This document shows positions 6,001-54,890 of a DNA stretch of 64,000 nt, in pieces. Each line of letters opens with the position of its first letter. Positions within the stretch are counted from its first letter, which is position 1. Origin of the DNA: a virus; the IMG/VR virus record IMGVR_UViG_3300020034_000009, positions 7,436-71,435 of that record. One strand, 5' to 3'. The position numbers and the translations under genes are program-made. The notes beneath the pieces are model-generated. The model was not told where the DNA came from and did not search any database. It saw only the letters and a list, made by a program, of their open reading frames with translations.

Positions 6001-9000
6001 ATAAGAGAATCGGTAGGCATGGTGCTATAAGCAGCCTTATCAAGGATTGCCTGTGGATCAGTTTCAGTAATAGGATTACCCTCAGAGTCTATCCAAATAG
6101 GTTTACCATCTACTCCAGCTCTAGCATAAACAGTAGCAATAGTATTATCATCTCCACCCATTCTAGTTATAAGACCGGGGAGACCCATGGAAGCTTCAGT
6201 CTTTCTAGTTACAAGAACTACTCTAAGTTCTTCGGGATTCTTGAACCATTTAGCATTATTAAGCAGAAACTGCTCTCTAATATGATGAGGCTTATGATCC
6301 TTATCAGGAGAAGTATTGGAACGGAATAGTATTTCTATATCCTTAGCAGGAGGTCTAATATCTCTTACACCAGTTTCAGCAGCTGGATCACCAGACTCTG
6401 GTTCTAGTTCCTTTTGAGATTGAAAGAGTTTATCATGTATGGCCTTGTTAGCTTCAAATTCTGCCTGAGCCTTTTTGTCAGCTCTAGACTGTATAATAAC
6501 TAATTCAAACTTATCATATACAGCACTCTTAGCTTTATACTCTACTTCCATATCCTTTAAAGACTTTTGTGCAGTATCCAAGTCAGCTCTGAGCTGAGCA
6601 AGTTTAGCCTCACTAGGTCTTATATCCTTATCTTCGGCCTCAGTTATAAAGTTCTCAAGAGTTTTTAACTCTTCCAAGAAATTAGGATTAAGCTTTAGGA
6701 AATTAGGATTAGCCCTGAAGAATGTAACCAATTCTGGAGACATGCTATCAGTAGGAGCTTTAGGATATGTAGCTGTAAATCCACCAATAAGGCTATGAAT
6801 GAAATCTATAGAGCTATCAATAGCCTTTTCCAAATCGCCAATAAGCTTAGTAGCCTTGTTAATAGAATCACCTGTCTTAACAATTAAGTCTAATACATCT
6901 TCAGCCTGTTCCTTAATTTCTTCAAGGAATTCAGTACTATCTGTAGGTAGATTATCAATATCAGCAGCTACATCATCAAAGTAGGCTAAGTTCATTTCAA
7001 GCTGATCTCTCTCAGATTCAAGAGAAGTATTCTCTGTTACCCACTCATCTCTCATTCTAGAGAGTTTCATAGCAGTTCTTACAGCCTGTCTTGTAGTAGG
7101 TTTAAACTTCTGCTTTTCTTCATCTATTTCTCCCTTAGTAATCTTATCAGAAAGCTTAGCTAACTGGCCCTCAGACTCAAGGAGAGACTTATTATTCTCA
7201 TCAATACGTTTATTAACAGTATCTATTCTAGCTCTATGGTCAGTAACAAGCTGCCCTATAAGAGCAAGTCTAGCTTCTCTCTTCTTATTCACTCTATCAT
7301 CATCCTTGGCAGCAGCCATTTCTTCAAGAGCTGTTTGCTGTACAGGTGTTAGTGTACCAATTTTCTGAATAAGAGGCACGGAGAATCCTTTCTTTGGAAG
7401 AAACTGATCCCCAGTTACTTCAATCCTTTTAAGCTTTCCTTTCTTGTCTACATAGACAAATTCCATCTTATTCTTGGCAGCATTAAACTGAAGTCTTCCT
7501 CTTTGTTTACCGCCCTTTTTACCAAAATTGAATGTAAATATATCATTGATATGCTCAAGATAGAACTTAGCTTTCTTGTTTCTAGCTACATCACTAACTT
7601 TACCAAGCTTGTAACCTTTAAATTCATCAGCTGGAACATCTCTGATTTTACCATCAGCCTGTTTAATCTTAATACTTCCATCTGAATTAGTTCCAAGAAT
7701 AGTAAGTCTAGGGAAACGATATACTTCCTTACCATTCTTATCATACTTAACCACACGGCCTAAATAGTATTCCTCACCAACTTGTACATTTTCTTCTCCA
7801 TCAGCTGTAGTAATAGTAGCCGTAGTAGGAGGAACAATCCCATTTTCTGGAGGAACAGCACCAGCAGCTGTAGTTTCTTCAGGTTCTCTGAAGGATACAG
7901 GATTATTTTTAAGTTCTCCAAACTCGTCAAGGAAATATTTTCTCCTCATACCCATTTCAACAAAATCATTCAAATCCTGTTCAAGGGCTTCCTTAGTAGC
8001 ATCAATCAATGGAAGTTTACCAATAGCTTCTCTTAAATCCTTATAGGCTTCCCCTGTATAGTCCTGAACATCAAATGAATTAAGAGCAAGAGTATTAATA
8101 CCAGAGTTAGTCAAATAAGACATTACAGCAGGAATTCTTTGGTTATAATCTTCTACCTTAGAGGCAGCATATACCATCTTGTCAATAATATTATCAGAAT
8201 AAACTCTTGACTTATCTGCATTGACTAATCCTTTGTAACGCAAATTAAAAGACTCATAGAAAGTCTTCATATTATCTGCATGTTTCTCAAAATTATCCAG
8301 CCTAGCAAGGAATGATCCTTTAGTATCAGTTTCAGCAGCTTTGCCCTCAGCCTGTAATTGAGCAAACCCCTTATCAGTACTAGCAAGAGTTTTCATTGTC
8401 TGAATATCATCCTTAACCAAGTCATATCTACCATACTTAATCCTAGGATTCAAGTAGTTATGAGCATAATCTCTCTCCAAATCCTTGGCCTCAACAATAT
8501 CTCCCTGTCTAATAGCAGCTTCTTGCTGCTCTTGAAGGGTAATACCTCTATTAACACCATCCAAAGTCTCCTGCATAAAGCCAGAGAAGGATTTACCAAT
8601 AGTATTATCATTAAGAGCTTGGATAGCCTGAGCTGTATTACTCTTAAGGGCCTTGTTCTTATTAAATGTTCCCTTAACTTGAGAAATGGCTCCAGAGACA
8701 CCACCAATAATAAGGGATTCCCACCCCTCCTTAGTATTAAAAGCCTTGCTATAACCAGCACCAACTAAGTCACTCATGAAATCAGTATCTGATCCCCTGT
8801 ATTTTTTATCATAATAGTTCTGAGTACCAAACTGAATAGCAGTCTGACTCACTTCTTCTATAGCTTCAGAAGGAGCAAAGGAATATTCTAGTGCTGTTTT
8901 AGCACCCTTGTAAAGTTTGGGGAATTTGATTTCTCTAATAAGACCACTCTCTGTATCCTTAACTAGTTGATTAGTAGTTACAGCAAAGTCATTAGCAATA

Positions 9001-10139
9001 GACTTAGAAGCCTTATAGCTAGTTCCAAGTATCTTTGGAAATTGAATATAATTGGTTACGGTGAGTAGTGCAGTATTAAGAAGGAAGGATGCCTTGCCTA
9101 CATCAGCAGCTTTAGCATCAATAAGTCTCATTTCCTCACCTGTTGGAAGTCTACCAACTCTATCCCTAAAGGTTTGAATAGAAGCTTCTCTTGCTGTATT
9201 AGCATTAGTAAGAGATTCAAATGAAGCTTCACCTACAGTAGACAGTCCAGCACTAAGAACTCTTTGTCCTGTACTGAGAATATTATATTTCTGAATAGCA
9301 TTAGCAGATATATCAGTAAGTGCTCCCTGTAATTGTGTAATTTTTTCAAGACTATTACCACTAGCAGCAAGAGCTTTCTCAGCAGCCGCAGCAGCTTCAA
9401 AGGATTTACCAATGGATGTTACCTTCGATAAAGAGCCTAAAGCACTAAGAGCCTTGCTATAAACTCCTCCAGAGAGATATGCTCCAGCAGCAAATCCTAA
9501 GTTTTTAACAACTTTATCAAACAGAAAATTAACTGTCATCCAGTTATCAGGACTATACCACTTAGCATCAGTCTCAGCCTGAGAGTAGTAGTTTGGTAAA
9601 TAGTTCTTATCTAATACATCATTGAAGCCAGTTAAAGCTCTATTAAATCCATTATCATAGAATCCACTCATCTTTCCTGTAGCAATAGCTTTTCCTACAC
9701 CGGCTACTAATCCTACAGTACCCTGTAAAAAGGTTGTTCCAGTAAGTACTAATCCTTTCAATACAGCGTTACTAGCTTTAGCTAAACCACTTTGTCCAGC
9801 AGCAGCTGCATCCTCATTATTAACACCAAGAGAGAAGAACTTAAATCTTCCACTTGTATCAATTTCAGTAACAGGAACATTAACAGAGGAGTTAATATCA
9901 AAAGCTCCCTTAGGAGTTTTACCTACTACAGCAGCCACACTAGCAAAGGGGTCATTAGATGTATTAGCAGATGCTTTTCCACCACCACTACCTACTGCTC
10001 CAGTATCTAATATCTTAGCTTCTAAAGTCTGATTAGGATCAGGAAATGTCGAAGCATCTAAATCAGGAATTGGTATCTGTTTTAGGAATGTATTAAAATC
10101 TGGTCTCTGTAAATTTATATCTGCTACCGGAGCTGCCAT
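1..10139 (-). CDS. Giant virion-packaged DNA-dependent RNA polymerase (crAss-like, phi14:2 gp66 type); 3' end beyond window
   Basis: ATG at 10139 (MAAPVADINLQRP). The frame is open wherever I translated it and no stop-bounded ORF is listed in it, so it appears to run off the edge (>3379 aa). In-frame GVGFRIPTQEINSM (~510-550) and TKAGSDFDVDKL (~402-437) are double-psi-barrel RNAP catalytic motifs. Confidence 0.92.
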   Translation of the reverse strand, partial: MAAPVADINLQRPDFNTFLKQIPIPDLDASTFPDPNQTLEAKILDTGAVGSGGGKASANTSNDPFASVAAVVGKTPKGAFDINSSVNVPVTEIDTSGRFKFFSLGVNNEDAAAAGQSGLAKASNAVLKGLVLTGTTFLQGTVGLVAGVGKAIATGKMSGFYDNGFNRALTGFNDVLDKNYLPNYYSQAETDAKWYSPDNWMTVNFLFDKVVKNLGFAAGAYLSGGVYSKALSALGSLSKVTSIGKSFEAAAAAEKALAASGNSLEKITQLQGALTDISANAIQKYNILSTGQRVLSAGLSTVGEASFESLTNANTAREASIQTFRDRVGRLPTGEEMRLIDAKAADVGKASFLLNTALLTVTNYIQFPKILGTSYKASKSIANDFAVTTNQLVKDTESGLIREIKFPKLYKGAKTALEYSFAPSEAIEEVSQTAIQFGTQNYYDKKYRGSDTDFMSDLVGAGYSKAFNTKEGWESLIIGGVSGAISQVKGTFNKNKALKSNTAQAIQALNDNTIGKSFSGFMQETLDGVNRGITLQEQQEAAIRQGDIVEAKDLERDYAHNYLNPRIKYGRYDLVKDDIQTMKTLASTDKGFAQLQAEGKAAETDTKGSFLARLDNFEKHADNMKTFYESFNLRYKGLVNADKSRVYSDNIIDKMVYAASKVEDYNQRIPAVMSYLTNSGINTLALNSFDVQDYTGEAYKDLREAIGKLPLIDATKEALEQDLNDFVEMGMRRKYFLDEFGELKNNPVSFREPEETTAAGAVPPENGIVPPTTATITTADGEENVQVGEEYYLGRVVKYDKNGKEVYRFPRLTILGTNSDGSIKIKQADGKIRDVPADEFKGYKLGKVSDVARNKKAKFYLEHINDIFTFNFGKKGGKQRGRLQFNAAKNKMEFVYVDKKGKLKRIEVTGDQFLPKKGFSVPLIQKIGTLTPVQQTALEEMAAAKDDDRVNKKREARLALIGQLVTDHRARIDTVNKRIDENNKSLLESEGQLAKLSDKITKGEIDEEKQKFKPTTRQAVRTAMKLSRMRDEWVTENTSLESERDQLEMNLAYFDDVAADIDNLPTDSTEFLEEIKEQAEDVLDLIVKTGDSINKATKLIGDLEKAIDSSIDFIHSLIGGFTATYPKAPTDSMSPELVTFFRANPNFLKLNPNFLEELKTLENFITEAEDKDIRPSEAKLAQLRADLDTAQKSLKDMEVEYKAKSAVYDKFELVIIQSRADKKAQAEFEANKAIHDKLFQSQKELEPESGDPAAETGVRDIRPPAKDIEILFRSNTSPDKDHKPHHIREQFLLNNAKWFKNPEELRVVLVTRKTEASMGLPGLITRMGGDDNTIATVYARAGVDGKPIWIDSEGNPITETDPQAILDKAAYSTMPTDSLMIPSKPTELRYGKGTPEDAIAHQAAWKQKRAEILAWTDGTFQAFEFNISRGIAKKNIKEVDKKNVYEENNIVGALIKQSDLFKQGLVRVVTTGVIDHQDTSVTFPPGSVVIQNGDTLEFANNRQFTDKEVDTLYKALRGLVSSGKQGTLDKRFTRFLQGVFYFSQPESPAKAGRNQIWIQEGRMHLGKNFSFPFYEGGFDRAKPEVVAWLKGSFNNVNNTKLKDNKPYNEIIDVKDGEPVMITWKSYQHFLLSPTYDLIEDDDSPLKGKAREKAPLSTSIRTINTAVDPLDSNFEQKYATLVGEFYPKPEKLEPKKESTPPAPKKEAVKKEPTQTPTQKKATTKYITDGITQNILPTKGGDVPFTAVLGPQGYIIGTEVSPAVKASLLANPNVGAYMEQGLADDEAVEAFLRDYIAATIIKSEQEQAPSAQESTPAPSTPVVTAPVQEAATLTKAQELIAKAKASGAVAKKDADYRLFIEPGDYIQANLDQEQSWFEKNFSIPFKRVKNIINAGGAGLAFGKFQNAAVYIWENAETGTTYHEAFEAVWSMFTDLKEKNNILGEFRARKGSYKDRETGATLSFSNSTDQQAKEQIAEEFRDFVIKAEKPQKGFLQRMFTDLLNFIKGLFQTGSPMQAMFRRINGGYYKTAVPINHENIGDPQYRIDPNWRSAIAQTVTKHVTVSLLRQINKDGSSAHLVELDEKGGVGFSKLFSMVYDEMQDWYEVQLPLRNPNISPEEFAKYLTVWENVKNNWDSVKENALESLRTYGIIAKMNELDTDEIDDTENIGVTEEKADGKSSAEYERDHFAYDIKKNAPASIKFLFANLTEAVGSINGEYTLDRDKATSLEKQTQYTKVFNQVMTAVSTGNTMDEKKEILRDLMVKYPTLRKLYSYLKFDKDNISVDDWRLRVRFFNVFSKQQPSPIINYVNEMGEVFVGDADLSNAAQSQVRKWVESFKATAGKTGSLITIGITNKEYLVKKDALDKYNISKLSDKVKMLNDMGIAFTEAMYNLLSTKQRSDFNKAVAGLKSALGKKDKLIASSAKTLDISGSLTQIAEAFLRAKGEEWESTFINIEGEKVQKHVLVNFVSNIVNDFNNATDLDDLYRRVPHLKYHGYSAGSQYLKDINDPDKRTSFKVKYIQGTIDQSKTYKPNIPTEKLSPSDRLIQEINQNLVGNYYVLVPADSKTEWMLGMDNKIDFSALENKSVMWKTVGRIFNEYYQVEKALFKADGKPRLLAAASNNYKSADISEGIKKYIEQQVDDQLKFLLNNGKNITHLNSDFVLDNFGTTVSDDALREALLFTTINYVINNTEIHKIFFGDPAAYKDPTKRFKSFLSPREASLYGSPEWNNITNEEANKVGDIKLTAKDYGYWQFHDVMAVATVDDIITSTSSDFSKMPENIREAYQSSNSADGQSWGTMTGYREIWKRSGDRWTNAHETQFQYMMARDRQEMLKDGVLTNSTYRKELQEVDKARVAKGNPRVAFFPVLKPIGSGFDGENLPFLHKTSLVPLWYTGTKVNGQATNLTNHYLRMVDNGISYSIVASGQKVGTTDKDSVFDETGKAKPNDDFFDGIIEVPFRYYGIQVETNTNKDKGPRGTQITKEVTMNLMDDGIPIDHVEGQESKIGKEIAYNKQLLDKITNIGYQKLLDKFGLIDDGTSFSMPDKTKVFTLLRDEMFRREMPDNLRNALKLNEAGEFAIALEALPNYGQIKSILYSYVDKYISKPKVNGGAKVQVSGAMWEKAGAREVTYYTEKGVKKTAVVSRGLKFYEPVYDSAGKLTAVGRMEVMLPNWVGKKLRRTGMTDEEIIAKMTPEMLRGVGFRIPTQEINSMEAFIIKGFLPEEYGSTIIVPEEITTKAGSDFDVDKLNTYLKNIHVKKTGNLHLIEYQGTDESTLQYYREFYDKAIEEAIAFNKKKIANTGKNLALVMAYDSDFLTDEQIEENADYLDELLEGYATNEDFIKELEDRILKRQETIAKLTNKEIQDIAREMFAEGKLAQAL

Positions 10140-34700: not shown

Positions 34701-34743
34701 GGATTAAGGGGTTAAAAGGGTCTTTTTCGTCCTTAATATAGCA

Positions 34744-35082
34744 TTAGTCATCGTCATCCTCAGAATCTTTTCCATCATCTTCGTTAATTTCTCCCTCTTT
34801 AGACTCATCTAGGTCCAAAACAAGGTCTTCCTCATACTCATCTACCCATTTCTTATGGACACTGGCATAGGGCTCGTCTATTAACACCTTCTCAAAAACG
34901 GTTTCTATAATAGTCTTAGTAGATGTATATTTAATAATAGTAATAATATCTTCGGTCCTCATAGTAATCATCCTATACACCCACTTGGCATTCTGTGGGG
35001 GTATACCTAATTCCAGTCTCTCATTTTCCATATCTGACTCTGACATGAGAAACACTTTAGCCTTTAGTTGGATAAGTCCCAT
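34744..35082 (-). CDS. Hypothetical protein with acidic tail
   Basis: 112-aa ORF translationally coupled to portal. Confidence 0.65.
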   Translation of the reverse strand: MGLIQLKAKVFLMSESDMENERLELGIPPQNAKWVYRMITMRTEDIITIIKYTSTKTIIETVFEKVLIDEPYASVHKKWVDEYEEDLVLDLDESKEGEINEDDGKDSEDDDD

Positions 35083-42047: not shown

Positions 42048-42079
42048 ATTTTTATACATAATTAATGCTATATTAAGCC

Positions 42080-47086: not shown

Positions 47087-47455
47087 ATGAAACGTTTCAC
47101 TATCGTATCAGTAAACAAGACAGCTGCTGGCAATTACTCAGGTTATTCTAGCATGGGAGAGAGAGTCCACATCTATGGCAAACAGTATGAGAATGCTGGC
47201 AGTCCAACTGGCACATTCTACGTTACTGCTGAACCAGTAGAGTATGATGAAACCGATGACAAGGATCAGCCAACTGGTGTCAAGTTTGTCAGGCTCACAG
47301 CTCGTGGAGTGTTTGCAAATGCTGCTGCTTACGCTGATGCTGCTACTGCTGACATGGCTCTGGACATTGCAGTCCTTGCTGCTCGCAAGAAGATTGGCCT
47401 TGCCAATAAGCTTGATGATGCTGAGCTGTCTAGGCTTCTGGCACAGTCTATCTAA
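47087..47455 (+). CDS. First early gene, hypothetical
   Basis: 122 aa; GC-richer codons than neighbours; has its own terminator. Confidence 0.8.
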   Translation: MKRFTIVSVNKTAAGNYSGYSSMGERVHIYGKQYENAGSPTGTFYVTAEPVEYDETDDKDQPTGVKFVRLTARGVFANAAAYADAATADMALDIAVLAARKKIGLANKLDDAELSRLLAQSI

Positions 47456-47459
47456 TATT

Positions 47460-47487
47460 AAGGGGAGGCTAACGCCTCTCCCTTTTT
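47460..47487 (+). terminator. Intrinsic terminator
   Basis: GGGGAGGC-TAAC-GCCTCTCC then CTTTTT. Confidence 0.85.
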
Positions 47488-47512
47488 CCATATATAGATA
47501 GTCAGCTTAAAC

Positions 47513-47637
47513 ACTATTAATACATAATATTGAATAGATTAAACAACTGATGTATTTCTTTAGAGGAATACTATATACAGTAGTCTAATATGGTTAACGC
47601 CCAATTAGGTGACTATTCTTTGTTATGTATTAATAGT
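47513..47637 (+). ncRNA. Long-stem three-way-junction RNA
   Basis: ACTATTAATACATAATA..GAATAG pairs with CTATTC..TGTTATGTATTAATAGT; two internal hairpins. Confidence 0.5.
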
Positions 47638-47649
47638 TTTATACATTTT

Positions 47650-47709
47650 CACCGGTAAAATACCGCCATTCACCGAGATTGTCCAAAAACACCGAGAAAA
47701 CACTCCATT
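47650..47709. repeat. Phased CACCG repeats
   Basis: CACCG/TACCG at 47650, 47661, 47671, 47690; two ~21-nt imperfect copies. Confidence 0.5.
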
Positions 47710-47943
47710 ATATATAGTATATACATAGACATACATATATTCACTCTATAGACACCATATTTATTAACACTATTAACACTATTTATCATGGATGAGAAAG
47801 AATTAGGCGATTTCCTTTGCATTTATACTGCAAATTGGGATAATAATGACTAAAAAGAGTGTAAATTGTTAATAGTGTACACATAACACACTATTCTCTT
47901 AATACTCTTTACGCTTAAAATAGTCCTAATACAACATTAATAT

Positions 47944-48066
47944 AGCATTAATATACAATTCATTGGTTTATATCCTTCTAGAAGGTTATATTCTTAACCT
48001 ATTGTCTCATAGAAGACAACTGAGAACAACTGGCTAAACAGTGGGGATGTATTGTATATTAATGTT
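47944..48066 (+). ncRNA. Long-stem multi-hairpin RNA
   Basis: AGCATTAATATACAAT/ATTGTATATTAATGTT and ATATCCTT/GGGGATGT enclose three small hairpins. Confidence 0.45.
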
Positions 48067-48228
48067 CTTTGTTTTAGAGAGCCAATGACTATGGCTGTAC
48101 ACTATTTAGTGTAGATATAAGGATTTATTCCATAGTTCCTGATAATGCTAGCAAGAGGGTAAAGGCTAGATAGGTATCACTACTCTTTTTATTAATGTTC
48201 TTTTTATTCACTTATTAATACCAAAACT

Positions 48229-48417
48229 ATGTTAAATACTGCAAACCCAGTTAGTTCTTTAGAAACTGTTACATATTCAAGTGGTTTAGATGAGAATGGT
48301 ATAGTATATTATATTAATACTCCTGATGGGGAATTAACATTATATACTGAAGCATTTAGTCTATTCTGTTCTCTTATGGCTCAATTGGAGAAGAATTTAG
48401 TTCGTATTGATTATTAA
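48229..48417 (+). CDS. Early hypothetical protein
   Basis: 62 aa; AT-rich start context. Confidence 0.6.
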   Translation: MLNTANPVSSLETVTYSSGLDENGIVYYINTPDGELTLYTEAFSLFCSLMAQLEKNLVRIDY

Positions 48418-48430
48418 CTCATTATTATAT

Positions 48431-48500
48431 GCCGGATTAGTTTTAATTGGTAGAACACCTAGTGCGCTAGGAGATGGGGGTTTGAATCCCCCATTTGGCT
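48431..48500 (+). tRNA. tRNA-like RNA lacking an anticodon loop
   Basis: GCCGGAT/ATTTGGC acceptor, D-arm with TGG, GGGGG-TTTGAAT-CCCCC T-arm, but CCTAG-TGCG-CTAGG has a 4-nt loop. Confidence 0.8.
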
Positions 48501-48601
48501 GCTTGAATAGTTATTAACGAGGCGTCAGTATACGCCTACAATGAGCTTAGTAGTTCAAGAGATTCAAGATACATATTATTAATACATTTAATTCAATTGT
48601 T

Positions 48602-48859
48602 ATGATATATAACTCAGCTCCAATGACAATGGATAAGTTATTCTCTCTTGGTAAGTGTAATTTACGTGATATTATCTCTGCCGGAGAAGTGTGTTCTCTA
48701 CTAGATGGAGATGATTACATGGCTCTTGGTTGGCTGAATGCGGGTATTAAGTTGCCTTCTTATCAGTTTGAAGAGTTGTATTCTAACCGGAGTGGCTCTT
48801 ACTGTATTTATATCAATAAACAGTTCAGAGCCTACTATTGTGTAGATATGGGTGATTAA
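48602..48859 (+). CDS. Early hypothetical protein
   Basis: 85 aa; ends YCVDMGD. Confidence 0.7.
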   Translation: MIYNSAPMTMDKLFSLGKCNLRDIISAGEVCSLLDGDDYMALGWLNAGIKLPSYQFEELYSNRSGSYCIYINKQFRAYYCVDMGD

Positions 48860-48870
48860 CTCACTCTCTA

Positions 48871-48923
48871 GAGGATATAACATATAGATGTGTTATTTAT
48901 AGGTTCGATTCCTATTATCCTCT
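48871..48923 (+). ncRNA. Mini tRNA-like element
   Basis: GAGGATA/TATCCTC acceptor plus ATAGG-TTCGATT-CCTAT T-arm; one hairpin replaces D and anticodon arms. Confidence 0.75.
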
Positions 48924-49111
48924 CATTTATTAACTCACTAAACTGTTATTATATGACTCATTACTTAACATATGTATATACATGCTCTGTAAATGGTGTA
49001 ATTCCATGTTCTATAGAGAGGTGGAGAATACAGTTTGGATAACTAGTAGATGTAAAATACTAAGCAATAATGTGGTGAGTTATCCCTCGTATTGCCCATG
49101 TTTTCTATTAT

Positions 49112-49230
49112 TAAGCGTTAGTATACAATAGTTTGGATGTGTTAAGCATGTCATAACCTCTATCGGCAGATAAGAGTAGGTGTCAATCATGCCCATTCTA
49201 AATACTAGTTCTATTGTGTACTAATGCTTA
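49112..49230 (+). ncRNA. Long bulged hairpin RNA
   Basis: TAAGCGTTAGTATACAATAG/CTATTGTGTACTAATGCTTA with nested GCATG/CATGC, ACCT/AGGT and ATC-GGCA-GAT. Confidence 0.55.
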
Positions 49231-49267
49231 TTTATTACATTGATTATTAACCTTTTATACATATTAT

Positions 49268-49492
49268 ATGATACTCAAAGCTGGTCAATCATTTACCTTT
49301 TATACTAATGAGTTTGTTGAAAAACTCAATACTCTTGAGCCTATAGAGAGGGTTAAACTTCTGCTTACTGCTGCTGAAGAAGAAATTAGTGATTATAGAA
49401 GCGAAGTAGGTATAGGCTATTCAGCTGATATGATCTACAATAAAGCTCATGGTCTTATTTCTGAAGCTCTATCTACACTTGGAAGAGACTAA
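49268..49492 (+). CDS. Early hypothetical protein
   Basis: 74-aa ORF. Confidence 0.65.
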   Translation: MILKAGQSFTFYTNEFVEKLNTLEPIERVKLLLTAAEEEISDYRSEVGIGYSADMIYNKAHGLISEALSTLGRD

Positions 49493-49516
49493 TTATTAAC
49501 CATTTAACTATATATT

Positions 49517-49732
49517 ATGCTTAAAGTATATTGTATTCACCATAATGAATATGGATTTTGTACTCTTGATGACTATAATGATAGTAAATCAGGGGCTAAT
49601 CCCTCTGGAATGCTTAGAGTAGAGTTTAATACATTCACTCAGGCTGTTCCACTTAATACTATTACTCTTGTTGATGATGAGGAGCCAACTGAAGCTGATT
49701 ACTGGAGTGGTGAGGCTGAGTATCCACAATAG
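49517..49732 (+). CDS. Early acidic hypothetical protein
   Basis: 71-aa ORF. Confidence 0.65.
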   Translation: MLKVYCIHHNEYGFCTLDDYNDSKSGANPSGMLRVEFNTFTQAVPLNTITLVDDEEPTEADYWSGEAEYPQ

Positions 49733-49781
49733 AATTAAGGGGGTGGAATTCCCCTATTATTCATTAATAAAACTAATACAA

Positions 49782-50024
49782 ATGAAGAAAGTAATAATAA
49801 ATAAGCCTAAAGCAGACTCTATATATTTAGAAGATGTTTCATTACTCAATCAGATTCTAACATTTAATAGTAATAGTGGCAGTTGGGGTATTATATTTGA
49901 AAAAGGCAATGGTTGCCCTAAATACCGGATTAAATGGACTGATGGTAGTGAATGTATGAGTGAATATGATAGTATTAAAGAATTAATGATTGATATGCCT
50001 TCTGTAGACTATTATGTACTATAA
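49782..50024 (+). CDS. Early hypothetical protein (paralog of 50477)
   Basis: Start moved to MKKVIINK; WG.I and S+.EL+ shared with 50477. Confidence 0.65.
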   Translation: MKKVIINKPKADSIYLEDVSLLNQILTFNSNSGSWGIIFEKGNGCPKYRIKWTDGSECMSEYDSIKELMIDMPSVDYYVL

Positions 50025-50166
50025 ATTAATATGTTATGAACAACTTACTATTAACACTAAATGAGCCATTTTGGGTATATGGACATATTGTACCAACTAA
50101 ATACAATGTATTCCCTGCTCCTATAATGAGAATTGATAATATTCCTTATAATCTAAACTAATTGTT

Positions 50167-50370
50167 ATGTTTAAAGACAGCTCTTTAGAGCCCTTACTCA
50201 AGCCTGTTAATCCTATAGTATATTATTCTGTAGAATTTGAAGGACTTGAAACTCCTGTTTATACTATTCAGACACCGGGAAATCCATTAGAACTATTCTC
50301 TGGAGAAATGGTAGATTTAATATTCCTTCTACAGTCTCTTGGTATAAAAGTGGAGAGAAAACAAGATTAA
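50167..50370 (+). CDS. Early hypothetical protein
   Basis: 67-aa ORF. Confidence 0.6.
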   Translation: MFKDSSLEPLLKPVNPIVYYSVEFEGLETPVYTIQTPGNPLELFSGEMVDLIFLLQSLGIKVERKQD

Positions 50371-50476
50371 TCACTATTAATACTACTATTATGTTAACAA
50401 CATTCATTGTTGGAGGTGTATTATTCATATACCTCAATGGTAAACTTATTGATAAACAGCTTATTAAACTATAAAA

Positions 50477-50716
50477 ATGAGAAAAATCGTAATTAAAAAT
50501 GAAATTACTATCTCTCTCCTAGAGGTAGATATTAAAAAACCTATTCTTGTTCAGACTTATCAAGGAAATTGGGGATATGTAATATATAATAAAGCTTCAT
50601 GGAGAATATTCTGGTTGACAACTAATATATTCGGTTCTTTTAGTGTATCCTCATTACATGAGCTAATTGATTACTATTCCAAAGAAAGCTATACATTTTA
50701 TAGTGATATAATCTAA
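50477..50716 (+). CDS. Early hypothetical protein (paralog of 49782)
   Basis: MRKIVIK..ISLLEVD..WGYVI. Confidence 0.65.
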   Translation: MRKIVIKNEITISLLEVDIKKPILVQTYQGNWGYVIYNKASWRIFWLTTNIFGSFSVSSLHELIDYYSKESYTFYSDII

Positions 50717-50723
50717 ATCATTC

Positions 50724-50827
50724 TATTCTCAGTATCTAGTTGTAATATGTCTACAAAGGCTCTTAGCGGAGTACTTGTATCGTGACCTGATTCGTACTCA
50801 GGATATTATAACTGGATACTGAGGATA
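50724..50827 (+). ncRNA. Long-stem RNA carrying a T-arm-like hairpin
   Basis: 25-bp closing stem TATTCTCAGTATCTAG../..CTGGATACTGAGGATA; CCTGA-TTCGTAC-TCAGG abuts the 3' strand. Confidence 0.65.
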
Positions 50828-50858
50828 TTTATTAACTAATCTATTAAATATATTTAAA

Positions 50859-51086
50859 ATGAAAGCAACAATAACAGAAAATCTATCTAAATTTAAGCCA
50901 TTTACTCTCTCACTTACTGTAGAGGCAGAGGATGAAGAGAATGCATTGTATGCTATTGGTAATGTAAATTATAAAAGACTTATGGAGCTATTAATAGAAT
51001 GTACTGCATTTGGAGTAAGACCTAGAAGTGAGGCTGCTTTAAGTGAAGTAACAGGTATTATATATAGAGCTATAAAGAATCGTTAA
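50859..51086 (+). CDS. Early hypothetical protein
   Basis: 75 aa; FKPFTLSLTVE motif. Confidence 0.7.
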   Translation: MKATITENLSKFKPFTLSLTVEAEDEENALYAIGNVNYKRLMELLIECTAFGVRPRSEAALSEVTGIIYRAIKNR

Positions 51087-51250
51087 CATATTAAAACTAA
51101 TTACTATATTTTATCCAGAACATCCAACTAATGATCCAAATTTTACATTTGTCTCAGTAATAGGGCTTATGCTTATTACTGTTATTGGTGTATTATGGAT
51201 TGGTTATGAATTACTTAAATCTTATTGTTTTAAACAAAATACCGATTAAT

Positions 51251-51544
51251 ATGCTACTAGAAATGATGATGTGTCCTCTCATTTTAGAAATGAAGGACCA
51301 AGAAGGTGATTTGACTGAAAAAGAGGCTGATAACCTTGCAACTGAAGTGGTTGCTAATGATCCTGCGGCTACAATAGATAATTTTAGGGATGCTGCTGCC
51401 ATGATTAGAAGTAATGTAGAACAAGCTATTATATTTTTTGAATATAATGAGGAAGAAACTAAATTTATTAGGCAGTTCTTTAATAGAATGGCTGCATTAG
51501 TACTTCAAAAAGCAATGGATAGAAATAAAACACAACTAAACTAA
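51251..51544 (+). CDS. Early hypothetical protein
   Basis: Start moved to MLLEMMM. Confidence 0.6.
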   Translation: MLLEMMMCPLILEMKDQEGDLTEKEADNLATEVVANDPAATIDNFRDAAAMIRSNVEQAIIFFEYNEEETKFIRQFFNRMAALVLQKAMDRNKTQLN

Positions 51545-51549
51545 ATTTT

Positions 51550-52020
51550 ATGACATACAACGAAGCTTATAATAGAATTATAACAGCTTATTTTAAGGAT
51601 GAAGTGAAACCATTTGAACCATGTGCTTGCTTTATTGGCAATTTGCTTGGTGGTAAAGATATATGGGCAAATGCTAGAACAAAAGACCCTTTCTTAAATA
51701 TGTTTGTACCGGCTAAATATGAAATAGGTTTCTATGGTTCTAAAGATTCAATTGATAAAGGTTTAAAATATATTAAAGACCTTTCTAATGATGTATTAAC
51801 AATAGAAGATATATGTAGAATAGAAAATGTTTTTATGAAGATTATTTGGGGACATACTTCAAAATCTAATATAGGCTATTTTAATGATGGTTGTGATCAG
51901 GAAGAACAGTTATTTGAAGCTATGTCAGCTGGATTAGATATGCTTAAGACTATATATGAAGAGAAAGGATTACCTACAGAATCTATTGTATTTAATAAAA
52001 GAGAATTAGTTAACGCTTAA
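51550..52020 (+). CDS. Early Cys-motif protein (paralog of 59760)
   Basis: AYF..PCACFIGNL..IENVF..LDMLKTI. Confidence 0.75.
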   Translation: MTYNEAYNRIITAYFKDEVKPFEPCACFIGNLLGGKDIWANARTKDPFLNMFVPAKYEIGFYGSKDSIDKGLKYIKDLSNDVLTIEDICRIENVFMKIIWGHTSKSNIGYFNDGCDQEEQLFEAMSAGLDMLKTIYEEKGLPTESIVFNKRELVNA

Positions 52021-52029
52021 ATTATTTTT

Positions 52030-52206
52030 ATGCTTAAATATTCTGAACTCTATGATTATCTACTTTCTACTGCTAAAGTAGGAAAAGGTATAGCAGTAAT
52101 TGGTGATTATGCATATATTACCGAATATTCTAGAGCCTATCTTATTGCTGTAGAAATAGGTAATCTAGGCTATGTATTTCGTATTAAATCACTAAAAACC
52201 AAATAG
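52030..52206 (+). CDS. 58-aa hypothetical protein
   Basis: MLKYSELYDYLL..., below ORF cutoff. Confidence 0.5.
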   Translation: MLKYSELYDYLLSTAKVGKGIAVIGDYAYITEYSRAYLIAVEIGNLGYVFRIKSLKTK

Positions 52207-52368
52207 TTATGATACTTATTCATGATTTTATATGTATATTAGGAATAGTATGCTTTTTGACCTCAGGATTAACAGCTATTACTACTCCTTATAGACAGTA
52301 TTCTAGTAGTTTTTATAAAACTGGACTAGGTATTGCTTGTTTTATTTACCTCTCTCAACAATTATAAT

Positions 52369-52560
52369 ATGGAAAGACTATATAATTTTATATTAGCTCT
52401 AATAGTAATATTATTTATATTCATTCTTATGCTTAATAATGAGATAGTTAATAATGAAAATAGGCTTAAAACTCTAGGGGAGGAGAAACGATTAATAATT
52501 GTCCCTCCCCTAGATACTTCTGTTAATGCTGTTAGATTTATTTATAAACCAAAACAATAA
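52369..52560 (+). CDS. Small membrane-anchored protein
   Basis: MERLYNFILALIVILFIFILML transmembrane segment. Confidence 0.55.
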   Translation: MERLYNFILALIVILFIFILMLNNEIVNNENRLKTLGEEKRLIIVPPLDTSVNAVRFIYKPKQ

Positions 52561-52564
52561 TTCT

Positions 52565-52819
52565 ATGGAAAAGGATAAATTTGATTATTTAATGGATATT
52601 ATTGAGGAGAATATTAATTCTAAATCTGTGCTTGGTACTATTGAAGTAAGGCCAACTGGTTTACTCCTTTTGATGCTACAAGCTAAAATTGCTTATGAGA
52701 AGGATCATCCAGAGATATATTGTCAACACCTCTATCCTGTACATTCTTATTCTGAGGCCATAAGAGGTCTTGTAAAATGTACTAAATGCGAATTACCTTA
52801 CACTGTTAAAGGATTATAA
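52565..52819 (+). CDS. Small Zn-ribbon-like protein
   Basis: CQH..KCTKC. Confidence 0.6.
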   Translation: MEKDKFDYLMDIIEENINSKSVLGTIEVRPTGLLLLMLQAKIAYEKDHPEIYCQHLYPVHSYSEAIRGLVKCTKCELPYTVKGL

Positions 52820-52821
52820 TT

Positions 52822-53049
52822 ATGGATAGTAAACAAATAGCTGATATAGTACATGCAAAACTTGGTACATTTCCTAATGTATGGATAGAAAGAAAGGTTG
52901 TTAAAGAAACCCTAACTGAAATATTCGACAATATTAACAGTGAAATGCCATTTTCAGAGGATTATTTCCATAAAGATACATATGAGAAGCATAAATATGC
53001 TTGGGATAAACAAATTACATTATTGAATAATATTATTAACTCTCTTTAA
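52822..53049 (+). CDS. Early hypothetical protein
   Basis: 75-aa packed ORF. Confidence 0.65.
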   Translation: MDSKQIADIVHAKLGTFPNVWIERKVVKETLTEIFDNINSEMPFSEDYFHKDTYEKHKYAWDKQITLLNNIINSL

Positions 53050-53058
53050 ACTATTAAC

Positions 53059-53310
53059 ATGGAACTATATTTTATGGTAGATGTAAGTAAGGGATATGAT
53101 TTAGAAAAAGCCATTGAATTCATTAGTGCTGAGGATGAGGTAGCATATTCCCATATAGTACATAAAGTGGAAGATGATTTTGTTACATATAAGCTATATA
53201 CAGATGCTGATGAATTGGATATTCCCGGTGTTAGTGTAACTGTCATGGCTGGTCTAATAGGTTTTAGGCTAGGATGTGTATTTGCTGCACAATTAATTAA
53301 AAATCGTTAA
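53059..53310 (+). CDS. Early hypothetical protein
   Basis: 83-aa ORF. Confidence 0.65.
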   Translation: MELYFMVDVSKGYDLEKAIEFISAEDEVAYSHIVHKVEDDFVTYKLYTDADELDIPGVSVTVMAGLIGFRLGCVFAAQLIKNR

Positions 53311-53322
53311 ACTATTAACAAA

Positions 53323-53607
53323 ATGAAAGTAGTAATTGAACAAAAGCATACTGTTAATGCTAGATATATAGATAATCGAGATTGTCCTCTATTTAGAGCT
53401 ATTAAAGAACAACATCCAGAATTTCCTCTTAAGTCTGTAGCTGGTACATGGATAAGAGATACAGAAAATAATCTCTATGCTTTTAATAATGCAAATTGGA
53501 ACAGCGAGGTAATGAAAGATTTAAGGGAGGGCATTGTTAATCCTATAGAAATAGAGATTGAGAATGATCCATTTAAAACTCCAGTAGTAACCTTTTCTGA
53601 ATTTTAA
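53323..53607 (+). CDS. Early hypothetical protein
   Basis: DCPLFRAI motif; AAACTATTAACAAAATG start context. Confidence 0.7.
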   Translation: MKVVIEQKHTVNARYIDNRDCPLFRAIKEQHPEFPLKSVAGTWIRDTENNLYAFNNANWNSEVMKDLREGIVNPIEIEIENDPFKTPVVTFSEF

Positions 53608-53633
53608 TTAATTACAACTAAACTATTAACAAA

Positions 53634-54017
53634 ATGGATAAGTATGATGAACAAATAGCTTATTTAACTAATAATCCTAACCAGATTAATAAATTATGGG
53701 ATAAGGCAGAAGGACTATTTAAAATATTAGGCAAAAATTCAAATTTAAGAAGAGCAGGTTGTCTCACCATGATAAAACCTGATGAAAATAGGGCTGTTCC
53801 ATATTATCCTTTAGATGAAAAGGGAAATATATTGGTAGAGCTTAATAAGGAAATTATAAACGATTCCGGTATTCCTAATGATCCTTTTCTTATTACTATT
53901 GAAAAATTGCCAAAATTTGCCTACTATCAACGTAAATATGATGCATTAGTAGCTGAAACTACCCATAATGCTATAGATGATAATGATTTTCATCCTGATA
54001 GAGATTGTTATAACTAA
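53634..54017 (+). CDS. Early hypothetical protein
   Basis: GCLTMIK motif; same AAACTATTAACAAAATG start context. Confidence 0.7.
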   Translation: MDKYDEQIAYLTNNPNQINKLWDKAEGLFKILGKNSNLRRAGCLTMIKPDENRAVPYYPLDEKGNILVELNKEIINDSGIPNDPFLITIEKLPKFAYYQRKYDALVAETTHNAIDDNDFHPDRDCYN

Positions 54018-54031
54018 AAAAACTTAAAATT

Positions 54032-54238
54032 ATGCCTATTTATCCCACTTTTAATGAAGGTCCAGCTACAGCTGCTTTTTATATTTCATTACTATTAATG
54101 ATAGTATTTGGAATTTTAACGGGCTATTTTATGGTTAAATTAGAGGAGAAAACTAAGAATGGTTGGTATATAACAGGAGCTATATTATCTGGTATTCTTT
54201 TTGGAATTTCTACTATTTCTGGACTTTTAAACTCTTAA
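54032..54238 (+). CDS. Two-TM small membrane protein
   Basis: Two hydrophobic helices. Confidence 0.65.
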   Translation: MPIYPTFNEGPATAAFYISLLLMIVFGILTGYFMVKLEEKTKNGWYITGAILSGILFGISTISGLLNS

Positions 54239-54249
54239 AAATTAAATAT

Positions 54250-54690
54250 ATGTATACAGTAGATTATTTTATTGATTTTTTCTCTTCAATTCCTGAGCAG
54301 AATTTTAGAGTTTGTCCATCAGATGGAGAATATAACCCTACATTAGGATGTGCTTTACAGCATTTAAATAGGAACGAAGACCCCTTAGAAATTTACTCAT
54401 CTACTAAGAGTATGGCTTTAGCTAAATTATTAATGGTACTTCCTGCAAATAATTTTAATGGTGAACTTAGTGGTGTTTCTAGAGCATGGCTATTAAATGA
54501 CGATGATAAGCCACAAGAAGCTGATACCTCTTATGGCAGAAAGAAATCTACTTGTAGAAGTAGAATGTTGGCTGCACTACAGGATGTGAAGAAAATGCAG
54601 CAGGAACAGAGAATTAATGAAGGAAACAATATTCTTAATTCATTTAACCCTCCTATAGGTCAGGAATTACCAGTTAAACAGCTGGTTTAA
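54250..54690 (+). CDS. Early CA..H/ND-motif protein
   Basis: MYTVDYFIDFF..GCALQH..LND..RMLAAL. Confidence 0.7.
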   Translation: MYTVDYFIDFFSSIPEQNFRVCPSDGEYNPTLGCALQHLNRNEDPLEIYSSTKSMALAKLLMVLPANNFNGELSGVSRAWLLNDDDKPQEADTSYGRKKSTCRSRMLAALQDVKKMQQEQRINEGNNILNSFNPPIGQELPVKQLV

Positions 54691-54691
54691 T

Positions 54692-54803
54692 AATATTCTC
54701 TCTTCTATAGATAGTGTAATAGTGTAAACCAGTGACTAATATACCTGAGCTGCGTTACTTAATGGGACTGCTCCCTGCTATTATACTATCTATAGAGGAT
54801 ATT
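54692..54803 (+). ncRNA. Long-stem three-way-junction RNA directly 5' of a tRNA-like element
   Basis: TCTATAGATAGTGTAATAGTG/TGCTATTATACTATCTATAGA; AGTGAC/GTTACT and GGGA-CTGC-TCCC arms. Confidence 0.6.
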
Positions 54804-54806
54804 TAA

Positions 54807-54890
54807 GGGGAAGTGGTGGAACTGAGTATACACCTCTGGCATGACTTTCTGTAAGGCCAACAATTGCAGGTTTGAATCCTGTCTTCCCTA
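54807..54890 (+). tRNA. Aberrant tRNA-like RNA (non-canonical anticodon arm)
   Basis: GGGGAAG/CTTCCCT acceptor; TGGTGGAA..TATACAC D-arm; GCAGG-TTTGAAT-CCTGT T-arm; middle region lacks a 5-bp/7-nt anticodon arm. Confidence 0.7.

Follow-up and report, generated by a model that had tools for sequence, protein, structure and literature searches.

In the early region of phage T7, RNase III sites (R0.3-R1.3) occur between genes on the sense strand, repeatedly along a series of small early genes. They are compact hairpins with a helix of about two turns and an internal loop at the cleavage site, and a protective 3' hairpin remains after cutting. A long closing helix around an insert of arbitrary sequence is also found in the intervening sequences of bacterial 23S rRNA and in the flanking stems of rRNA that RNase III cuts; there, cuts on both strands excise the insert. 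Correia/nemis, ERIC and RUP elements are imperfect intergenic palindromes of 100-150 bp, present in many near-identical copies with target duplications; they are transcribed into long hairpins, some of which are cut by RNase III. The crAss-like phages are abundant, and their early gene control is poorly understood. For one of them, phi14:2, a report (bioRxiv 10.1101/2020.03.07.982082) describes abundant, persistent non-coding RNAs of unknown function that arise from long intergenic regions where the early arm begins, and states that a common early promoter motif was not found. Bacterial and phage Y RNAs (YrlA, bound by Ro60/Rsr) are about 100-125 nt long, have a long stem formed by their two ends and have tRNA-like sequences nearby; according to another report (PMC4201824), they are encoded within ~4 kb of the Ro60 (TROVE) gene on the same strand.

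We analysed a window of 64,000 nt from a 71,435-base virus record (IMGVR_UViG_3300020034_000009, positions 7,436 to 71,435); all coordinates below are those of the window. The source is an uncultured soil crAss-like phage. In the rightward arm of small genes, all five intervals singled out by a sequence-only reading proved to hold a long inverted repeat (E1-E5). These elements and the other structured features of the arm are as follows.

47462-47481, + strand: ordinary intrinsic terminator from the terminator scan, in an element-type slot after ORF 47087-47455
47513-47637, + strand: E1 (family A), 17-bp closing helix, 2x2 loop and 6 more bp, 91-nt interior; arms 47510-47537/47613-47640 (28 nt, 86%); z -6.11
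47944-48066, + strand: E2 (family A), 15-bp closing helix (9 more bp past a bulge); arms 47946-47963/48047-48064 (18 nt, 94%); z -4.44
48431-48500, + strand: T1, tRNA-like with a shortened anticodon loop, in the slot after an ORF; Rfam tRNA, 44.1 bits
48871-48923, + strand: T2, tRNA-like, 53 nt, without an anticodon arm, acceptor stem GAGGATA/TATCCTC; Rfam tRNA, 33.3 bits
49112-49230, + strand: E3 (family A), 20-bp closing helix, 79-nt interior; arms 49107-49131/49211-49235 (25 nt, 84%); z -5.07
49738-49755, + strand: ordinary intrinsic terminator from the terminator scan, in an element-type slot after ORF 49517-49732
50724-50827, + strand: E4 (family B), helix of 25 bp without interruption, including 3 G·U pairs, 54-nt interior of 48% GC; arms 50724-50748/50803-50827 (25 nt, 88%); z -6.69
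54692-54803, + strand: E5 (family B), 23-bp helix or, alternatively, an outer 7-9 bp TATTCTC/GAGGATA helix; arms 54701-54722/54778-54799 (22 nt, 91%); z -6.10
54807-54890, + strand: T3, tRNA-like, 84 nt, 15-nt anticodon loop, directly after E5; Rfam tRNA, 31.3 bits

The closing helices of E1-E5 are AU-rich, span 15-25 bp and enclose loops of 53-91 nt. Closing stems of ~20-25 bp, first described for E1, E2, E4 and E5 (E3 having been read as a long bulged hairpin), were found in E3, E4 and E5 (20, 25 and 23 bp), but in E1 and E2 the helix is interrupted after 17 and 15 bp, with 6 and 9 further bp past the 2x2 loop and the bulge, respectively. The TATTCTC and GAGGATA ends reported for two elements are present in E4 (50724-50730/50821-50827) and E5 (54694-54700/54795-54801). 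In E2, the 5' arm is duplicated in tandem (47933-47944).

As + strand RNA, the five elements were predicted to fold at -35.3 to -43.7 kcal/mol, and for none of them did any of 200 shuffled sequences fold as well (z -4.4 to -6.7). A strict stem scan of the whole 71,435-base record (20 stacked positions, at least 19 pairs, loop of 40-110 nt) returned exactly E1-E5 on the + strand and no match on the - strand; 40 locally shuffled genomes gave a mean of 0.35 matches and a maximum of 2. The excess over chance is confined to the closing helix and does not extend to structure in the loop. The sequence-only reading had placed 2-3 hairpins on the stems of E1, E2, E4 and E5, giving multi-way junctions; folded alone, however, the interiors of E1-E5 gave z scores of -1.06, -0.35, -0.38, -0.50 and -1.01, with 27, 70, 70, 53 and 29 of the 200 shuffles, respectively, folding at least as well, so that this claim is not supported. 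Only the interior of E4 contains a 5-bp stem with the loop UUCGUAC.

Folds of the - strand were weaker by 3.8-14.1 kcal/mol, with weaker z scores in four of the five elements. Among the 14 non-Watson-Crick positions of the arms (read by eye), 8 are G·T on the + strand, 5 are T·T and 1 is C·T, and none is A·C; the asymmetry between G·T and A·C favours RNA. Together with the pairing retained between paralogues, these results support selection at the RNA level on the + strand, as had been suggested from the preponderance of G-U mismatches. These unusually long and highly stable hairpin-forming stretches between rightward small genes would most likely act in RNA as cutting or end-protecting signals.

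E1-E5 fall into two paralogous families, E1-E3 (A) and E4-E5 (B), with conserved ends and unrelated interiors. In the 14-bp terminal helix common to E1-E3, all 42 cells are paired, 8 pairs are invariant and 5 pairs are changed on both sides; this level of covariation was reached by 5 of 500 shuffles. The covariation count involves some circularity, since the elements were selected for being inverted repeats. The conserved ends around unrelated interiors would also be expected of features acting in DNA: remnants of small MITE-like mobile inverted repeats, scars left by recombination where cassettes join, or a promoter-like motif present as two inverted copies. Consistent with such an origin, the elements are lineage-specific, the family A arms carry a TATTAA-type motif resembling the gene-start motif, a 16-mer from the 5' end of E2 recurs upstream of a - strand gene, and in a close relative (L029), whose upstream cassette differs and whose corresponding junction lacks E4, homology begins exactly at TTTATTAAC, directly 3' of the E4 position. 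However, the transition-type mismatches, 8 in number, are without exception sense-strand G·T, large loops such as those of 53-91 nt here disfavour cruciform extrusion, and the flanks of E1-E5 showed neither target-site duplications nor a shared direct repeat. Neither the genome nor other phage records yielded near-identical copies, and integrase, resolvase and reverse transcriptase genes were not found in the 71 kb. We consider a DNA-level role very unlikely.

MITE-like or palindromic repeats would occur in many similar copies with a target-site duplication at their ends, neither of which was found. In contrast to Correia/nemis, ERIC and RUP elements, there are here five copies in two loose families, with no duplications and none elsewhere. 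A retron msr-msd was rejected, there being no match to the reverse transcriptase family PF00078 in the 71 kb. No match to the site-specific recombinase families PF00589 or PF00239, checked with invertible promoters in view, was found in the same 71 kb, and the contigs of two runs showed only one orientation at the elements, although contigs drop rare variants. The rRNA intervening sequences lie in rRNA, whereas E1-E5 lie between phage protein genes.

All five elements are intergenic and flanked by + strand ORFs; the 5' arm of E3 is overlapped by a doubtful ORF of 49 aa (48982-49131). Their slot opens at a stop codon, or at a short stretch of non-coding RNA, and extends up to the next TTATTAAC gene-start motif; it is also used by the two intrinsic terminators and the three anticodon-defective tRNA-like elements. 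E4 begins 7 nt past the stop codon of ORF 50477-50716 and is directly followed by TTATTAAC (50829); E5 begins 1 nt past the stop codon of ORF 54250-54690, and 3 nt separate its end from T3. E1-E3 lie in the long non-coding stretches 47490-48228 and 48924-49267, with TTATTAAC at 49244 downstream of E3. The 740-nt stretch holding E1 places this element 30 nt past an intrinsic terminator; lying just past a strong terminator, E1 may not be co-transcribed with the upstream gene.

A slot shared with ordinary terminators could mean that E1-E5 themselves serve as factor-independent terminators or insulators of an atypical kind, in which a long hairpin with a U-rich tail ends transcription of each cassette by the host or phage polymerase. 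TTTA directly follows four of the five elements and TCTTTGTTTT directly follows E2, and the gene-start motif comes after E3 and E4. The U tracts, however, are short, and those after E3 and E4 belong to the motif that follows. An intrinsic terminator has a short G+C-rich hairpin and a T run; the terminator scan called 47462-47481, 49738-49755 and others but none of E1-E5, which have U-rich tails. An AU-rich hairpin base and a large loop are unfavourable for hairpin-driven termination, and both characterise these elements, with loops of 53-91 nt; moreover, normal terminators are already used nearby by the phage. Such a function is quite unlikely.

The interiors have a GC fraction of 0.30-0.48 against 0.15-0.30 in the arms, a hint that the loop carries something. 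E1-E5 could be stable small non-coding RNAs of ~100-125 nt, whose paired ends protect them from exonucleases and which act either via the loop or by engaging a host protein as dsRNA decoys or sponges, RNase III cleavage being unneeded. The location of E1-E3 in long non-coding stretches and of E1 after a terminator is in line with this, as are the persistent, abundant RNAs from the long intergenic regions of phi14:2. The crAss-like phage crAss001 has an early TROVE/Ro60-like protein with a 144-nt tRNA-like RNA beside it, showing that RNA-protein systems exist in the crAss-like group. Against it, the interiors lack above-chance structure, no sequence common to them was found, and similarity or complementarity to the rest of the genome was limited to short AT-rich words. 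Nor are the elements conserved in relatives, and genes for TROVE, dsRBD and RNase III proteins were not found in the 71-kb record. In a search of Rfam 15, which the sequence-only reading had proposed, the only matches at gathering score were the three tRNA-like elements; E1-E5 matched no family, the sole overlap below threshold being L20_leader at 47454-47567 (18.9 bits against 58.7, E 5.9), and the tRNA model gave no match on them at E up to 10. On balance, we regard stable small RNAs as unlikely. If E1-E5 nevertheless are such RNAs, they could represent a new type of RNA, regulatory or counter-defence, in phages.

Identity with Y RNA/YrlA, which E1-E5 resemble in size, in their paired ends and in having tRNA-like neighbours, was examined separately. 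PF05731 (TROVE) had no match in the phage (61% complete) or in any of five relatives, two of them complete; in this the 71-kb record differs from crAss001. None of the five elements, taken with 10-nt flanks, contains the GNCGAAN0-1G motif that Y RNAs carry near the 5' end; the tRNA-like D and T stem-loops of a Y RNA interior were not detected, and the interiors lack structure beyond chance.

Sense-strand helices that lie between genes and make about two turns are what RNase III-type sites would look like, and the RNase III reading remains the best: we tentatively propose, by analogy with T7 and at somewhat less than even confidence, that E1-E5 are double-stranded RNA processing or 3'-end elements in the style of the T7 early region. 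Like the T7 sites, all five lie between co-oriented genes on the sense strand. RNase III needs roughly two helical turns, which the helices of E3-E5 match. Unlike the T7 sites, E1-E5 are uninterrupted AU-rich helices closing large loops, and none is a compact hairpin with an internal loop. Neither RNase III nor dsRBD genes were found in the phage (71-kb record searched), so that cleavage would need the host enzyme. A search for RNA runs containing the sequence returned none. In the proposed mechanism, the elements would be transcribed and work as + strand RNA, the sense strand of the rightward arm, their functional part being the AU-rich helix that closes each element, which is 15-25 bp long and makes about two turns in E3-E5. 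Host RNase III would bind this helix and then cut it, separating transcripts at cassette boundaries and leaving base-paired ends resistant to exonucleases, as T7 early-region sites do, with a predicted effect on mRNA stability. For the adjacent tRNA-like elements, RNase P or RNase Z would be the cutting enzyme.

The short uninterrupted helices of E1 and E2, the position of E1 just past a terminator and the large loops, richer in GC than the arms, count against RNase III processing, as does the apparent restriction of the elements to one lineage; in addition, processing would be unnecessary for the cassettes should TTATTAAC be a promoter. Were the stems cut by RNase III, processing of transcripts in the manner of T7 would also occur in a phage group quite unlike it.

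ARAGORN called no tRNA at T1, T2 or T3; under relaxed settings, T1 was reported as 'tRNA-???' with a 2-nt anticodon. With these, there are eight structured RNA-like elements in ~7 kb, arranged as punctuation between small gene cassettes, and this arrangement provides a concrete model for cutting, ending or stabilising the transcripts of the arm. A highly improbable extension is that the five hairpins and three anticodon-less tRNA-like elements form a set of phage-encoded decoy or processed small RNAs, excised from early transcripts by host RNase III and RNase P/Z and occupying or misleading a host RNA-sensing or RNA-cutting defence or RNA quality control. Were this so, crAss-like phages would have counter-defence RNAs of a new class, with a role akin to that of the unexplained abundant early RNAs of phi14:2.

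No homologues of E1-E5 were detectable outside their own lineage, and no copies were found elsewhere in the genome. This apparent confinement, in a phage that is uncultured, sets a practical limit on their study. No long-stem elements were found in the relative L030, and two complete relatives (59% terminase identity) have few long-stem candidates, mostly inside ORFs. phi14:2 resembles the present phage in belonging to the crAss-like group and in having long non-coding stretches that start an arm of small genes, but no sequence similarity to E1-E5 was found and its long-stem candidates are weak (z -1.2 and -2.8). In a distant relative (28-40% identity of the upstream protein), an element with a 17-bp stem lies 4 nt past the homologous ORF, with z of -3.75 for the sense and -2.56 for the antisense strand. 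This element and the abundant early non-coding RNAs of phi14:2 speak for the proposed RNase III processing.

Among inverted repeats with a 50-90 nt spacer, none in the whole window is stronger than E1-E5, five long-stem elements on the + strand. A sequence-only reading had described E1, E2, E4 and E5 as RNAs with an AT-rich closing stem of ~20-25 bp capped by 2-3 hairpins, and E3 as a long bulged hairpin. Their positions and closing helices are as follows.

Long-stem elements (window positions) and their closing helices
47513-47637, + strand: E1, 17 bp, then a 2x2 loop, then 6 more bp
47944-48066, + strand: E2, 15 bp
49112-49230, + strand: E3, 20 bp
50724-50827, + strand: E4, 25 bp
54692-54803, + strand: E5, 23 bp

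Folded as + strand RNA, the elements gave -35.3 to -43.7 kcal/mol (z -4.44 to -6.69), and in the shuffled-control comparison proposed with that reading none of 200 shuffles folded as well as the real sequence for any of the five. The - strand folds were weaker by 3.8-14.1 kcal/mol. Employing a strict stem scan (20 stacked positions, at least 19 Watson-Crick or G·U pairs, loop of 40-110 nt) on the full record, we recovered exactly E1-E5 on the + strand and nothing on the - strand; in 40 shuffled genomes, the same scan found 0.35 matches on average (maximum 2). A looser criterion (17/18) added a single weak match, 48886-49003, which was left uncounted because 2.75 such matches per genome are expected by chance. 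The z-scores, the strict scan and the shuffled genomes together exclude chance as the origin of E1-E5, and the five elements are real where they had been reported.

The helix arms are AT-rich as claimed (GC 0.15-0.30, with 0.30-0.48 in the interiors and 0.32 in the whole + strand gene arm); uninterrupted helices of 20-25 bp occur in E3-E5 but not in E1 or E2. The helices enclose loops of 53-91 nt. Folded alone, these interiors gave z between -0.35 and -1.06, being equalled or surpassed by 27-70 shuffles out of 200; therefore, the predicted 2-3 capping hairpins are what is expected for any sequence of such length and composition, and the multi-way junctions are not supported. The genuine feature of E1-E5 is the closing helix. 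The original observation was real in its core and overstated in its detail.

Non-Watson-Crick positions in ungapped arm pairs (n=14) comprised 8 G·T on the + strand, 5 T·T, 1 C·T and no A·C. A decaying DNA palindrome is expected to yield G·T and A·C in similar numbers. The departure of 8:0 from this expectation points to selection for pairing within the + strand transcript, in line with the earlier claim that the mismatches are mostly G-U on this strand and favour RNA. The + strand is richer in G and T than its complement, which could tilt the G·T count somewhat; composition-controlled z-scores still favour the + strand in four of the five elements. The record sequence is present in two DNA runs from one soil-metagenome sample and in no RNA run listed; contigs of the two DNA runs showed no variants, joints or inversions, an outcome that tells little in this single-sample comparison. 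That E1-E5 are repeats maintained at the DNA level appears quite improbable. At L136 411-529, in a viral contig 4.8 kb long with 53% GC, ~60 bp of GC-rich DNA lie between the arms of a perfect AT-rich inverted repeat of 29 bp; both strands of this repeat fold equally well, and for this reason it looks like a DNA-level palindrome, unlike E1-E5.

Comparison of E1-E5 found no overall sequence common to all five, but two families, E1-E3 and E4-E5. E1, E2 and E3 have in common a 14-bp terminal helix in which 42/42 alignment cells pair, with 8 pairs invariant, 1 varying on one side and 5 changed on both sides; these values were matched by 5 of 500 shuffles. At the four helix positions where the closest pair, E2 and E3, differ, A-U has been exchanged for G-C once and G·U has been gained or lost three times. 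The earlier remark that two elements start with TATTCTC and end with GAGGATA is borne out by E4 and E5, which have these outer pairs, the TTTA after them and the inner GTAATA/TATTAT pairs in common, whereas their mid-helix sequence differs yet still pairs. Because each element was picked as an inverted repeat, the covariation is partly circular; it shows common descent with pairing kept and is no proof of function.

The record (71,435 bases, an IMG/VR virus estimated to be 61% complete, bases 7436-71435 forming the window) encodes terminase, portal and major head proteins matching PHROG families. A terminase query found four loci at 59% identity, these nearest terminases lying in uncultured phage records of 118-125 kb. 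The genome layout and a giant ORF, as opposed to a formal classification, suggest a crAss-like phage. An ORF of at least 3,379 aa (3-10139, -) extends past the window end. Large genes occupy the - strand up to ~46.9 kb, and small + strand ORFs run from ~47 kb onward, where the GC skew changes sign; the label "early arm" for the latter region was an assumption of the sequence-only reading, drawn from analogy. Along this arm, the units are ordered as follows.

Order of units along the + strand arm (window positions)
47087-47455, ORF; terminator (47462-47481); E1
micro-ORF; E2
48229-48417, ORF; tRNA-like T1 (48431-48500, +)
48602-48859, ORF; tRNA-like T2 (48871-48923, +)
micro-ORF; E3; then two ORFs and a terminator (49738-49755)
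50477-50716, ORF; E4
54250-54690, ORF; E5; tRNA-like T3 (54807-54890, +)

By this order, the long stems take a slot, from the stop codon to the next gene-start motif, in common with ordinary terminators and tRNA-like elements. A plausible role for elements in this slot is to form or protect the 3' ends of RNAs. E1-E5 might themselves be atypical terminators, which we consider distinctly unlikely. The motif TTATTAAC (or CTATTAAC) follows most units directly or within ~10 nt, except E1 and E2, for which the next copy is ~120 nt away. It precedes the next ATG by 0-22 nt at many + strand start codons (examples on the + strand at 48411, 48511, 48927, 49244, 49493, 50829, 53033 and 54895) and could mark gene starts or act like a promoter; the window has 97 copies of WTATTAAY, versus 38.7 expected. 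A 16-mer at the 5' edge of E2, TTAATATAGCATTAAT (47937-47952, +), recurs exactly at 42061-42076 (-), just past a terminator and ahead of a - strand gene, and with one mismatch at 34733-34748 (+); it may be a promoter-like motif.

T1, T2 and T3 keep the acceptor and T arms, and their anticodon loops are 3 nt, absent and 15 nt, respectively. Rfam tRNA scores were 44.1, 33.3 and 31.3 bits; ARAGORN called none of the three and found no tRNA, and relaxed settings returned noise plus an abnormal T1. These elements are unable to decode; they may serve as signals for RNase P/Z processing or mimic tRNAs.

No homologues of E1-E5 were found via DNA similarity or patterns. The suggested Rfam search assigned them to no family, at the gathering score or at E up to 10; cultured phages contained no similar DNA in near or distant mode, and complementarity to the rest of the genome was limited to short AT-rich words. 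The pattern TATTCTC...GAGGATATTTA matched 100 stretches of viral contigs; these matches are chance, because among 80 taken as loci the terminal helix never exceeded 10 bp. The family A helix pattern gave 9 loci, mostly in AT-rich giant-virus bins, heterogeneous and unlike E1-E3 beyond the pattern. With ORF 54250-54690 as the protein query, two distant loci were obtained, the same two as with an alignment query; the 353-aa ORF gave one locus and ORF 47087-47455 none. A metagenome scan for relatives gave two loci, one being a close 1.3-kb contig, and two bacterial-genome scans gave none.

L029, a metagenome contig of 1,312 bases across the E4 junction, was aligned to 50830-51680, and its homologue of ORF 51550-52020 is 79% identical over the first 42 residues. 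It matches the window from TTTATTAAC onward, the homology starting exactly at the TTATTAAC/CTATTAAC motif; upstream there are a different ORF and no hairpin. L029 also has an extra ORF (L029 631-870) between two genes common with the window. Small gene cassettes are exchanged at motif boundaries. Given the other upstream ORF and the missing hairpin in L029, E4 moves together with the cassette upstream of it, and this junction can do without it.

In the distant relative G005 (locus L003), an element with a 17-bp stem lies 4 nt past the homologue of ORF 54250-54690 (z -3.75 sense, -2.56 antisense); the chance of a match at this position is well under 1 in 100, with the density taken from looser-criterion shuffles. 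Relative G002 has a weaker element a few hundred bases past that homologue, among tRNA-like sequences (z -2.55 sense, -2.73 antisense). Otherwise, two complete relatives and locus L030 had few stem candidates, mostly within ORFs; over all stem scans of relatives, the candidates were weak (z -1.2 to -2.8). Since candidates in relatives are few and neither similarity nor patterns found a homologue, the cluster of five strong stems seems peculiar to the lineage of this phage.

At L020 11660-11800 (G002:C1:71660-71800), the 3' part of a tRNA (T arm, acceptor 3' strand, ACCA) comes first and, after ~70 nt, a tRNA 5' part whose acceptor strand matches it; a helix of at least 14 bp joins both parts, and a CTGATAAGG...CTTACAGCAAA-like motif is present three times nearby. 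This arrangement could represent interrupted tRNA genes in tandem or a tRNA that is permuted. A permuted-tRNA reading of E4 and E5 was rejected, as neither a T arm precedes them nor a D arm follows them. The complete relative G001 has a group I intron match (Rfam RF00028, 91.9 bits) at L013 19767-19982 (G001:C1:59767-59982).

Our tentative reading, held at somewhat less than even confidence, is that E1-E5 are RNase III-type dsRNA elements. The sense transcript would fold into a helix of about two turns, and a host enzyme would cut it; the host is invoked because the 71-kb record has no match to RNase III or dsRBD (nor to reverse transcriptase, integrase or resolvase). The cut ends would remain base-paired and stabilise the flanking RNAs, and processing of the tRNA-like neighbours would fall to RNase P or RNase Z. 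Three features count against RNase III: the loops are large and GC-richer, E1 sits behind a terminator, and E1 and E2 have short helices. All three favour the main rival, that E1-E5 are stable small RNAs or decoys, which we regard as rather unlikely. Both possibilities had been raised by the sequence-only reading, whose interpretation is plausible but unproven. Under RNase III-type processing or 3'-end formation, E1-E5 would fall among putative intergenic phage hairpins of either type, in one uncultured lineage only. An integron attC reading was set aside, as an element is present in only 5 of ~35 cassettes and no integrase match was found.

For crAss-like inverted repeats or early non-coding RNAs, the literature search returned only the phi14:2 and crAss001 papers. 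According to the study of crAss-like phage phi14:2 (bioRxiv 10.1101/2020.03.07.982082), transcripts of two long intergenic regions, located where the early genes begin, are more abundant than those of most genes and are still present late; the early transcripts have no common upstream motif, and the function of the intergenic RNAs is unknown. Over the first 9 kb of phi14:2, our stem scan found weak stems only (4148-4265, 8010-8112). The early genes of crAss001 include a TROVE (Ro60-like) protein (PMC8375218). This early gene, with an adjacent tRNA-like match, made a Y-RNA reading of E1-E5 worth testing. The reading fails by the criteria in PMC4201824: no TROVE profile match was found in the record (61% complete) or five relatives, and E1-E5 contain neither the GNCGAAN0-1G motif nor tRNA-like arms. 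The crAss001 match itself is a 144-nt hit to the tRNA model (46.6 bits) at 96453-96596 of its record (L144 21454-21597, -), unannotated there; it lies next to the TROVE gene Gp96, within a non-coding gap of 900 nt, and is a candidate Y-RNA-like partner.
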